6,020 nucleotides of DNA from a virus (lineage: Duplodnaviria; Heunggongvirae; Uroviricota; Caudoviricetes). Positions 1,411 to 5,705 of the stretch are shown in pieces. The stretch's first letter is position 1. Each line of letters starts with the position of its first letter. The DNA lies in IMG/VR virus record IMGVR_UViG_2778261349_000007, positions 1 through 6,020 of that record; one strand, 5' to 3'. The notes beneath the pieces were generated by a model. That model was not told where the DNA came from, did no database searches, and saw only the letters and a program-made list of their open reading frames with translations. Made by a program: the position numbers and the translations under genes.

Positions 1411-1613
1411 AAAGTGGGGAGCAAAAGTGGGGAGCAGTGGGGAATTTAACAAAATTGAAACATAATTACCCACTTTCCCACCTGTATATACCCAAAAAAG
1501 TGGGGAGTAAAAAACATATTGAAAAACATAACGTTAGAATCACAAAAAAAAGAGGTGGGGAGACGGTGGGTAATTTCAAAAAGTGGGGAGCAAAAGTGGG
1601 GAGTGGTGGGGAA
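1411..1613. repeat. Iteron-type replication origin: about 9 direct and 2 inverted copies of AGTGGGGAG-like repeats flanking an AT-rich core
   Basis: Direct copies at 1413-1421, 1425-1433, 1435-1443, 1499-1507, 1553-1561, 1563-1571, 1582-1590, 1594-1602, 1605-1613 (AGTGGGGAG / GGTGGGGAG / GGTGGGTAA variants, 10-12 bp spacing within clusters). Inverted copies inside 1465-1480 (aattacccactttcccacc). AT-rich segment 1445-1550 between clusters. Sits directly 3-prime of the helicase gene. Confidence 0.7.
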
Positions 1614-4763: not shown

Positions 4764-4830
4764 ACGGGTCCTTTCCGGCATATGGACCCGTTACGGGGCG
4801 GCGACCTCGCGGTTTTTCGCTATTTATGAG
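4764..4830 (+). other. Lambda-type cos site, + orientation: cosQ-like (acgggtcctttccgg), cosN 12-nt core GGGCGGCGACCT (4796-4807), and the start of cosB
   Basis: gttacg-GGGCGGCGACCT-cgcggtttttcgctatttatga matches the remembered lambda cohesive-end region (GTTACG / GGGCGGCGACCT / CGCGGGTTTTCGCTATTTATGA), and ACGGGTCCTTTCCGG matches the lambda right-end cosQ region. Downstream (4831-4940) it diverges from lambda cosB, with no CCGTTCTTCTTC R3-like motif and a GGGTGGTGGTGGTGG run instead. It lies upstream of a Nu1-like gene, as in lambda. Confidence 0.75.
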
Positions 4831-4940
4831 CTTTTTCAGGGTGGTGGTGGTGGTTTTGTTGTTTGCTCTATCTTTATGAATAAAAAGGGAAAGATGCAAG
4901 CAATACACCAACCTGAAGCAGTAATTAAGTTGGTGTATTA

Positions 4941-5483
4941 ATGAAATCGCACCTGATGAACAAAAAAAACATGGCTAAAAGCTGCCGTGTAAGTGCGACA
5001 GCGTTCGACAAGTGGGGAGTAACTCCCGTTGAGCGTAAAGGCCGTGAGGCGTTTTATGATGTTGCCAGCGTGATAGACAATAGGGTTAACAATGCAATTA
5101 GCCAGCTTACAAACGGCAAAGGTGAGATTGATGATGATGAACTTTTACGAGTCAGGATCAGATTACTGACAGCACAGGCAGAGGCGCAGGAACTTAAAAA
5201 CGAGCGCGATCGCGGTGACGTGATTGATACAGAGTTTTGCATGTACGCGCTTTCAAAACTGGCGAGTCAGATTTCATCAATCATGGACAGCCTCCCGCTT
5301 ACTATGCAAAGGAACTTCCCACAGATTACCCCCGCCATGCTGGATAGGCTTAAAAGGGAAGTGGTTAAAGCCTGTAATGCCAGCGCAAAAGCTGCCGACA
5401 ACCTCCCGCAGATACTGGTTGCTTACCTGAATGAAACTACCGGAAACGTGCCGAAGAAGTTGCTACAGAAGAAAGGCGAGTAA
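4941..5483 (+). CDS. Terminase small subunit, lambda Nu1-like, 180 aa (start alternatively at ATG 4956)
   Basis: C-terminal two thirds align closely to remembered lambda Nu1 (LLTAQAEAQELKNERDRGDVIDTEFCMYALSKLASQISSIMDSLPLTMQRNFPQI vs LTRAQADAQELKNARDSAEVVETAFCTFVLSRIAGEIASILDGLPLSVQRRFPEL). The N-terminal DNA-binding region is more diverged (MNKKNMAKSCRVSATAFDKW... vs MEVNKKQLADIFGASIRTIQNW...). No clear SD upstream of either candidate start. Confidence 0.85.
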   Translation: MKSHLMNKKNMAKSCRVSATAFDKWGVTPVERKGREAFYDVASVIDNRVNNAISQLTNGKGEIDDDELLRVRIRLLTAQAEAQELKNERDRGDVIDTEFCMYALSKLASQISSIMDSLPLTMQRNFPQITPAMLDRLKREVVKACNASAKAADNLPQILVAYLNETTGNVPKKLLQKKGE

Positions 5484-5584: not shown

Positions 5585-5705
5585 TGTTAAACAATCTGTT
5601 ATAGAGAAGAAGAACGGATCTGACTTTTGCCAGAAAATTTTCATAAACAGATAAAATCCGCGAGGTCGCCGCCCCGTAACGGGCCATAATTCCAGGAAGG
5701 ACCCG
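5585..5705 (-). other. Second, complete lambda-like cos site in inverted orientation (cosQ-like, cosN, lambda-like cosB motifs on the minus strand)
   Basis: The minus strand reads cgggtccttcctggaattatggcccgttacg-GGGCGGCGACCT-cgcggattttatctgtTTATGAAAATTTTCtggcaaaagtcagatCCGTTCTTCTTCtct. cosN core is at 5663-5674 (forward aggtcgccgccc). TTTATGAAAATTTTC (forward 5633-5647) and CCGTTCTTCTTC (forward 5606-5617) match the remembered lambda cosB left-end sequence, including the R3-like element. It is convergent with the 4764-4830 cos, and the two flank the Nu1-like gene. Confidence 0.75.

Follow-up and report, generated by a model that had tools for sequence, protein, structure and literature searches.

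A probable iteron origin in an EcCICFT073-type phage-inducible chromosomal island and the helicase-initiator domain predicted to read it

Genes of the window and of its island

The stretch of DNA analyzed here, referred to as the window, is 6,020 nucleotides long and carries, in this order, an AAA_25 helicase gene (1–1410), a repeat array, an 83-aa ORF, and genes for an SSB, a lambda-E-like major capsid protein, a gpD-like decoration protein, and a Nu1-like small terminase. The helicase gene (rep, + strand) encodes a 469-aa helicase-initiator of the RepA family with a RecA fold, in which AAA_25 (aa 151–318, E = 8.7e-44) was the only Pfam hit. Rep matched phrog_2850 over its full length and bears the PGAP name 'helicase RepA family protein'; its only match among PDB sequences was a weak one, to the RSF1010 RepA helicase (1g8y, E = 0.019). 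The conserved 83-aa ORF (1613–1864, + strand; phrog_1231) follows the origin whichever type of initiator is present. The next gene (1861–2283, + strand; Pfam SSB, E = 7.2e-17) encodes the island's own SSB, which is likely an accessory of the replicon.

Aligned over its whole length, the window shares 98.3% identity with an island in the chromosome of E. coli 2015C-3905. This island lies between roxA and phoQ and harbors genes for a tyrosine integrase and an AlpA regulator (E = 5e-18), with a DUF4222 gene just upstream of rep. Locus L001, at the roxA–phoQ site, comprises the tyrosine integrase, AlpA (E = 5e-18), DUF4222, rep, ssb, capsid E, decoration D, Nu1-like TerS, and cosN. The sequence hallmarks of Gram-negative phage-inducible chromosomal islands (PICIs) were found: int occurs together with alpA, the genes are unidirectional, the island measures about 11 kb and occupies a specific att site, and its capsid, packaging, and cos functions derive from phages. 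EcCICFT073, the prototype Gram-negative PICI of E. coli CFT073, has both its site and its gene order in common with the island of the window. By these sequence comparisons, the window is assigned to an EcCICFT073-type PICI beside phoQ. Of 5426 complete E. coli genomes, 195, with many STEC strains among them, contained the exact origin sequence described below, which always lay between a RepA-family helicase gene and the same ORF. All 217 copies in E. coli were chromosomal and none was on a plasmid.

Several features of the packaging side of the island were also observed. Two exact inverted copies of the lambda cohesive-end 12-mer GGGCGGCGACCT, at 4796–4807 (+) and 5663–5674 (−), flank the Nu1-like terS gene, and the surrounding arms (4765–4840 and 5630–5705) are 76 nt long and 80% complementary. 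The + copy matches the cos region of phage 21, and the cos of the window is of the lambda/21 type. In EcCICFT073 (L094, 7559+ and 8298−), as in L001, L095, and L096, this inverted pair likewise flanks the gene that occupies the corresponding place. A third, degenerate cos-like copy lies after ssb at 2292–2400, where a terminator hairpin is followed by CGGGTCCT...ACGGGGCGGAGGGGCGCGG; it aligns with both cos regions and is devoid of the exact cohesive-end 12-mer. The capsid operon starts at 2701 and is closely preceded, at 2626–2673, by an 18-nt palindrome (ATGCAATCATGATTATAA...) and a hairpin with a 14-bp stem followed by a T-run; these elements may act as a terminator or as an operator where the replication module gives way to the morphogenesis module. 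The Nu1-like small terminase gene occupies 4941–5483, where EcCICFT073 has a gene for a 144-aa hypothetical protein (L094, 7660–8094). This difference at the same position suggests that the packaging-specificity gene between the cos copies is another swappable cassette in this island family.

The repeat array downstream of rep

The array begins one base after the rep TAA stop codon (1408–1410), directly downstream of the helicase gene, as a sequence-only reading of this DNA had noted. That reading had also counted about nine direct and two inverted repeats within 1411–1613, and both the number and the positions proved correct. In a word count, the 6,020-bp window contained 10 copies of GTGGGGA, of which eight lie on the + strand at 1414–1612; shuffling gave an expectation of 0.64 copies, and none of 200 shuffles reached 10. 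The looser pattern RGTGGGKA gave nine direct copies, at 1413, 1426, 1436, 1499, 1554, 1565, 1582, 1595, and 1605, and one inverted copy (AGTGGGTA) at 1467–1474, next to which a second, degenerate inverted copy (GGTGGGAA) lies at 1475–1482. In total, 1411–1612 contains nine direct and two inverted repeats of the AGTGGGGA type around AT-rich DNA. These iterons are 9–10 bp long and are spaced by 10–13 bp.

In detail, the left cluster (1413–1443, + strand) consists of three direct iterons at 1413–1420, 1426–1433, and 1436–1443, and the rep TAA runs into the A-rich leader of the first copy. It is followed by an AT-rich spacer (1445–1466) with a GC fraction of only 0.14, against 0.54 for rep, and then by the inverted pair (1467–1482, − strand). 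Between the inverted pair and the central direct iteron (1499–1506, + strand) lies the box TGTATATACC (1483–1492), whose consensus 'tgTATAta' is kept across 34 aligned origins from many genera. The central iteron and positions 1467–1476 together form an inverted repeat, CCCACTT-N21-AAGTGGG, around this TATA box. The main AT-rich core follows at 1508–1552 (GC 0.20) and is the presumed DNA-unwinding element; the 30-mer of lowest stability within 1300–1750 begins at its first base, 1508. The right cluster (1554–1612, + strand) has five direct iterons, at 1554–1561, 1565–1572, 1582–1589, 1595–1602, and 1605–1612. A 37-nt block of three repeats (1409–1445) recurs with 95% identity at 1578–1614, 169 bp away.

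The sequence-only reading had described the interval between the outer clusters as an AT-rich core of roughly 100 bp that holds the two inverted copies. The interval measures 109 bp and does hold the inverted pair, but it is not uniform: the TGTATATA box and the central direct repeat also lie in it, and its AT-rich parts free of repeats are 1445–1466 and 1508–1552. The inverted copies are found only to the left of the main AT-rich core; the TGTATATA box is enclosed between them and the central direct copy. Scans of the origin for DnaA boxes (up to one mismatch) and for the IHF consensus found none, and the window-wide counts of both were at the level of chance; this fits a self-contained initiator. 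An Rfam scan of the whole window matched no family.

Isolated perfect iteron words (AGTGGGGAG) were also seen in coding DNA, at 581–589 in rep (encoding QWGG) and at 5009–5021 in terS (encoding KWGV). The terS word is identical over 13 nt to the central iteron. We considered it as a second iteron site comparable to crr of P4 and rejected this idea: the word is also present in islands whose origins have TCTACC or GTGAGG repeats, and its TGG codon cannot co-vary, which argues for a coincidence of coding.

The arrangement of the array was compared across more than 90 related loci. A scan of one genome per species contributed 80 loci from about 40 Enterobacterales genera and one Oceanospirillaceae genome, and more than 70 of these keep the same positional plan relative to the rep stop codon. 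Two or three direct repeats lie at about +2, +13, and +23, and one inverted repeat lies near +55. Then come the TGTATATA box, a single direct repeat near +85, some 55 bp of AT-rich spacer, and, from +145 to +198, a further three to five direct repeats. The single inverted copy near +55 is present in essentially every related origin. The repeat word itself varies by lineage and is GTGGGGA, GTGAGGA, GTGCGGCA, GTGGGGGAA, GTGGGGGC, or ATGAGGAA. Within one locus, however, all copies, the inverted one included, carry the same variant, apart from two mixed origins (those of Rep homologues P0057 and P0067). Between the window and L004, for example, all 11 copies, inverted ones included, switch from GTGGG to GTGAG. 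Such a concerted change is expected for the binding sites of one protein whose specificity has drifted.

Two further elements of these origins were conserved in other ways. The TGTATATA box, found at 1483–1492 and in the same place in L002–L093, is kept in every iteron class and genus, which suggests that it is not read by the variable winged helix of Rep described below; it may be the site of first melting or of priming. In nine non-E. coli RepA-type loci (L038, L039, L042, L043, L047, L052, L089, L092, and L093), the AT-rich core contains a box of the form GAAAcCCgC.tCATTACTGG. This box is absent from the origin of the window and is found in E. coli Pri-Rep origins (L009–L013), whose iterons are unrelated; it may be a shared host-factor or priming signal.

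On its right side, the array reaches the next ORF, as had been proposed from the sequence: position 1612 is the final base of the last repeat, directly before the ATG at 1613, and in all E. coli RepA-type islands the last iteron adjoins this start codon. A scan of 1200–2700 found no promoter-like site, and no terminator between rep and ORF 1613, which suggests that these genes are co-transcribed through the origin. The same 83-aa ORF also follows the Pri-Rep and DUF927 origins, which end 40–100 bp upstream of it, and the contact between iterons and ORF is thus not a conserved requirement. The sequence-only reading had proposed that initiator binding could repress ORF 1613 and ssb; a roadblock effect of this kind is possible.

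Rep domains and repeat specificity

Rep can be divided into an N-terminal domain (aa 1–135; 1–405), the AAA_25 core, and a C-terminal domain (aa 396–469; 1186–1407). The nearest structures are RSF1010 RepA, RadA/Rad51, and Twinkle. An AAA+ superfamily-3 helicase core (D5/P4-like) was not found in Rep, its sole Pfam hit being AAA_25. Searches of Pfam and NCBIfam with the isolated N- and C-terminal domains gave no significant family, and a RepA_N domain was not hit by Pfam, even at E-values up to 10 on aa 1–135. The AlphaFold2 model of full-length Rep was mediocre (pLDDT 68.9) but showed a folded, alpha/beta N-terminal domain; a fold search with this model returned Twinkle and RadA as best hits at E-values above 0.004 and was uninformative. 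For the C-terminal domain, the prediction is a winged helix similar to that of Orc/Cdc6, with a recognition helix at 446–455, H445 at its N-cap, and a beta-hairpin wing at 459–468. From the comparisons below, this is the putative iteron-binding domain.

The sequence-only reading had assigned iteron binding to the N-terminal domain of Rep, and the comparison of islands spoke against this. In E. coli islands, the slot between the DUF4222 gene and the 83-aa ORF is occupied by one of three unrelated initiators, each with its own repeats on its 3' side: AAGTGxGG for the RepA-type helicase, TCTACC for Pri-Rep, and TAACCCGCA for DUF927. The N-terminal ~125 aa of the window Rep are nevertheless 45–46% identical to the N-termini of a DUF927 initiator (L008, E = 6e-31) and a Pri-Rep initiator (L009, E = 7e-28), both of which use unrelated iterons. 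This portable module (L008, 15–400; L009, 425–820) shows 45–57% identity among the three otherwise unrelated PICI initiator types, and in Klebsiella it also heads DUF927 proteins. Most relatives of Rep, on the other hand, have another N-terminus, some being forms of 672–703 aa with a zinc-ribbon and a Toprim primase, and yet keep AAGTGxGG iterons. L005 differs from the window in 58% of the N-terminal 135 aa, whereas its C-terminal 74 aa and its iterons are identical. Since the module occurs in initiators with unrelated repeats and can be swapped without a change of repeat, it does not set specificity. It may instead serve as a shared adaptor that links the initiators to a partner from the host, the helper, or the island itself; one candidate is the DUF4222 protein, which is always encoded just upstream.

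The reverse situation was seen in the pairs L005/L006, L003/L004, and L039/L053, in which the N-terminus and helicase differ by only 0–5% but the C-terminus by 15–45%, and the iteron classes differ. We infer from these sequence pairs that the iteron class follows the C-terminal winged-helix domain, that is, the last 74 residues. BLAST matches between islands break at about nt 370–405 of rep and at 1605–1621, which suggests that the helicase core, the C-terminus, and the origin move as one cassette.

Within the protein, columns 441 and 445 had the highest mutual information with iteron base 6 among about 469 columns. Residue 445 and iteron base 6 were paired as Asn–A in 19 cases, Lys–G in 19, His–G in 12, and Ser–C in seven, with one exception, although these counts are inflated by shared ancestry, for which the sister pairs and the prospective test that follow correct only partly. 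Among five sister pairs that differ in iteron class, 445 was the sole C-terminal position to differ in every pair, always with His accompanying GTGGG and Asn accompanying GTGAG. Predictions for 12 further homologues were fixed before their DNA was fetched; 10 were cleanly as predicted, two had mixed origins in which the majority of copies was as predicted, and none contradicted the rule. These results suggest that H445 reads the fourth base of the GTGGGG core, and that residue 445 is matched to this base by a simple rule, in which G is paired with His or Lys, A with Asn, and C with Ser.

L007 alone clearly broke this rule, as its Rep has H445 but all its iterons are GTGAGG. The origin of L007 is essentially that of the N445 protein P0022, from which its C-terminus differs only by N445H, and L007 is possibly a recent mutant or recombinant. 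A 478-bp intergenic region of L007 (3007–3484) contains a second, partial copy of the origin, with an inverted iteron, a TATATA box, and a direct iteron. The mixed iteron classes were those of L108 (2105–2310, P0057) and L104 (P0067). In L108, the left-half, inverted, and central copies are GTGAGG and three of the right-hand copies are GTGGGG, so that this origin looks like a chimera made by recombination inside the AT-rich core. The BLAST match of the window to L007 breaks at position 1528, near the switch point of L108. L007 and the two mixed origins suggest either that residue 445 is not the whole code or that some islands are recent recombinants.

Proposed initiation, alternative readings, and known systems

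Taken together, we consider it very probable that 1411–1612 is the replication origin of an EcCICFT073-family PICI and that the predicted C-terminal winged helix of the adjacent helicase-initiator reads its AAGTGGGGAG iterons, with H445 reading the fourth base. The earlier proposal of a rep-ori unit of a phage satellite thus agrees with the int, alpA, and cos content of the island, with the gene order and att site of EcCICFT073, with the published layout of PICI origins, and with the co-variation of the iterons with the adjacent Rep. The case is comparative and predictive throughout: the sequences show the repeat architecture, its conservation, the modularity of rep and origin, and the covariation of the C-terminal domain with the iterons, and the winged-helix fold is predicted, whereas binding, melting, helicase loading, polarity, and priming are modelled below by analogy with the SaPI Reps. 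Rep would act as a self-loading helicase-initiator composed of the portable N-terminal module, the RepA/DnaB-like (AAA_25) core of RecA fold, and the C-terminal winged helix. Its protomers would sit on the three left iterons, the five right iterons, and the back-to-back pair (CCCACTT-N21-AAGTGGG) that encloses the TGTATATA box. Melting would follow in the 45-bp AT-rich core (1508–1552), in the TATA box, or in both, and hexameric helicase rings would assemble on the opened single strands. Priming would be left to a host or helper primase, because the window Rep does not have the zinc-ribbon and Toprim primase of its longer relatives, and the unwound DNA would be coated by the island's own SSB.

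Other readings of the array were weighed against this one. The repeats might mainly be an operator array through which Rep or another regulator controls ORF 1613–1864 and ssb, with replication starting elsewhere; the abutment of the last iteron on the ATG at 1613 in all E. coli RepA-type islands fits this idea, as does the resemblance of the purine-rich iterons to Shine-Dalgarno sequences. We regard it as unlikely, because no sigma-70-like promoter or terminator was found in 1200–1700, the ORF and ssb also follow Pri-Rep and DUF927 origins that stop 40–100 bp upstream, other genera keep the layout beside different downstream genes, and the layout matches an origin type that was validated experimentally (PMC6092414). 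That the array is an origin whose iterons are bound by the N-terminal ~150 aa of Rep, in the manner of RepA_N initiators such as PLE RepA, appears very unlikely. The N-terminal domain of RepA_N proteins does bind DNA (PMC7145576), and that of Rep is modelled as a folded alpha/beta module, but the same module (45–46% identity, E of about 1e-28 to 1e-31) heads initiators with unrelated iterons, it was exchanged without a change of iteron, most relatives combine a different or primase-type N-terminus with AAGTGxGG iterons, and Pfam gave no RepA_N hit.

An even slimmer chance is given to a classical iteron-plasmid origin (Rep_3/pPS10/RK2) or an IncQ origin, dependent on DnaA or on a separate initiator. 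Direct repeats do adjoin an AT-rich stretch here, and the helicase is distantly related to RSF1010 RepA; against this, no Rep_3 (WH1-WH2) or RepC-like protein was present among the gene annotations of the window and island, the origin has no DnaA box within one mismatch, the iterons are of 9–10 bp at 10–13-bp spacing rather than 17–22 bp, and every one of the 217 E. coli copies is chromosomal. Least probable of all, and practically negligible, is a reading without any role in replication, in which the repeats are chance or degenerate simple sequence or serve for packaging or recombination. Only the general frequency of G-rich words, together with the two isolated AGTGGGGAG copies in coding DNA, speaks for it, whereas the observed count was not reached in any of the 200 shuffles, the repeats keep their positions from genus to genus and evolve together with Rep, and the cos sites lie elsewhere (4796–4807 and 5663–5674). 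An origin read by the C-terminal domain of Rep therefore remains the preferred reading.

In a wider sense, the chances are about even that Enterobacterales PICIs possess a second class of self-loading initiator, which would combine a RecA-fold helicase like RepA or T7 gp4, with or without a zinc-ribbon/Toprim primase, with an Orc/Cdc6-like C-terminal winged helix and a rule of nearly one residue to one iteron base. If this is true, a single substitution and concerted turnover of the iterons would create orthogonal replicons, and several satellites could replicate in one cell without cross-talk. The exchangeable cassette of rep C-terminus and origin, with iterons diverging by a simple rule, is a plausible basis for the compatibility of co-resident PICIs; up to 10 matching places were counted per genome. 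The rule is also a possible starting point for the design of orthogonal small replicons. For binding experiments, the domain of choice is corrected from the N-terminal 150 aa to the C-terminal 74 aa, and the origin is now annotated for a satellite replicon carried by 195 of 5426 complete E. coli genomes. The parts of the literature available to us contained no description of a PICI Rep class with RecA fold and winged helix or of a residue-445 rule; Fig. 2a of PMC6092414 may already draw a RepA-type origin, and the iteron sequences of that figure are not given in the available parts of its text and supplements. What this adds is modest: the helicase belongs to a different superfamily, and iteron recognition appears to obey a simple rule. 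The current understanding of PICI replication is not overturned.

Among the known systems, iteron plasmids have a Rep_3 initiator, iterons of 17–22 bp, and adjacent DnaA boxes, none of which was found for the origin of the window. T7 gp4, Twinkle, and RSF1010 RepA belong to the same RecA-fold family as the helicase core of the window Rep, and the Rep relatives of 672–703 aa carry the zinc-ribbon and Toprim primase of gp4-like proteins. To our knowledge, however, none of these helicases has a sequence-specific, origin-binding winged helix, and in RSF1010 the iterons are bound by a separate protein, RepC. The alpha protein of phage P4 is likewise a satellite initiator, with a helicase and, at its C-terminus, a domain that binds the origin by recognizing short repeated octamers; it has an active primase and a superfamily-3 helicase and needs a second repeat cluster (crr) kilobases away, unlike the window, which has no second cluster. 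RepA of the Vibrio cholerae satellites known as PLEs is a RepA_N protein that binds repeats at its cognate origin through its N-terminal domain and has no helicase (PMC7145576). It resembles the window Rep as a satellite-encoded initiator with a cognate repeat origin, but Rep lacks a RepA_N domain and its specificity maps to the C-terminus.

The SaPI Reps load themselves: a C-terminal winged helix contacts the iterons, melting of the origin requires no ATP, and neither DnaA nor a loader is needed; the SaPI origin has six to twelve iterons immediately downstream of rep around a central AT-rich region, some of them in the opposite orientation (PMC9371898). Short iterons on the 3' side of rep around AT-rich DNA, and a C-terminal winged helix as their reader (predicted in the window Rep), are common to both systems. 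On the other hand, the SaPI Rep is an AAA+ superfamily-3 helicase of 3'–5' polarity, whereas the window Rep has a RecA fold like RepA, DnaB, and T7 gp4 and presumably moves 5'–3'; it would thus act like a SaPI Rep without belonging to that protein family. The SaPI iterons are 5–6 bp long compared with 9–10 bp in the window, where, unlike in the description of SaPIs, the inverted iterons lie on only one side of the main AT-rich core.

EcCICFT073 belongs to the same island family as the window. According to Fillol-Salom et al. [quoted passage not shown] EcCICFT073 shares with the island of the window the phoQ-side site and the order of DUF4222, initiator, origin, 83-aa ORF, ssb, lambda-E-like capsid, decoration protein, and inverted cos pair, and its initiator shares the N-terminal ~125-aa module with the window Rep. 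It differs in that this initiator is a 584-aa P4/D5-like Pri-Rep (D5_N, DUF5906, Pox_D5) with TCTACC iterons, as against the AAA_25 RecA-fold protein with AAGTGGGGAG iterons in the window, and the C-terminal domains of the two have no detectable sequence similarity. Since the layout of the CFT073 origin has already been published, the origin of the window is an ordinary PICI origin and a member of a published kind of element.
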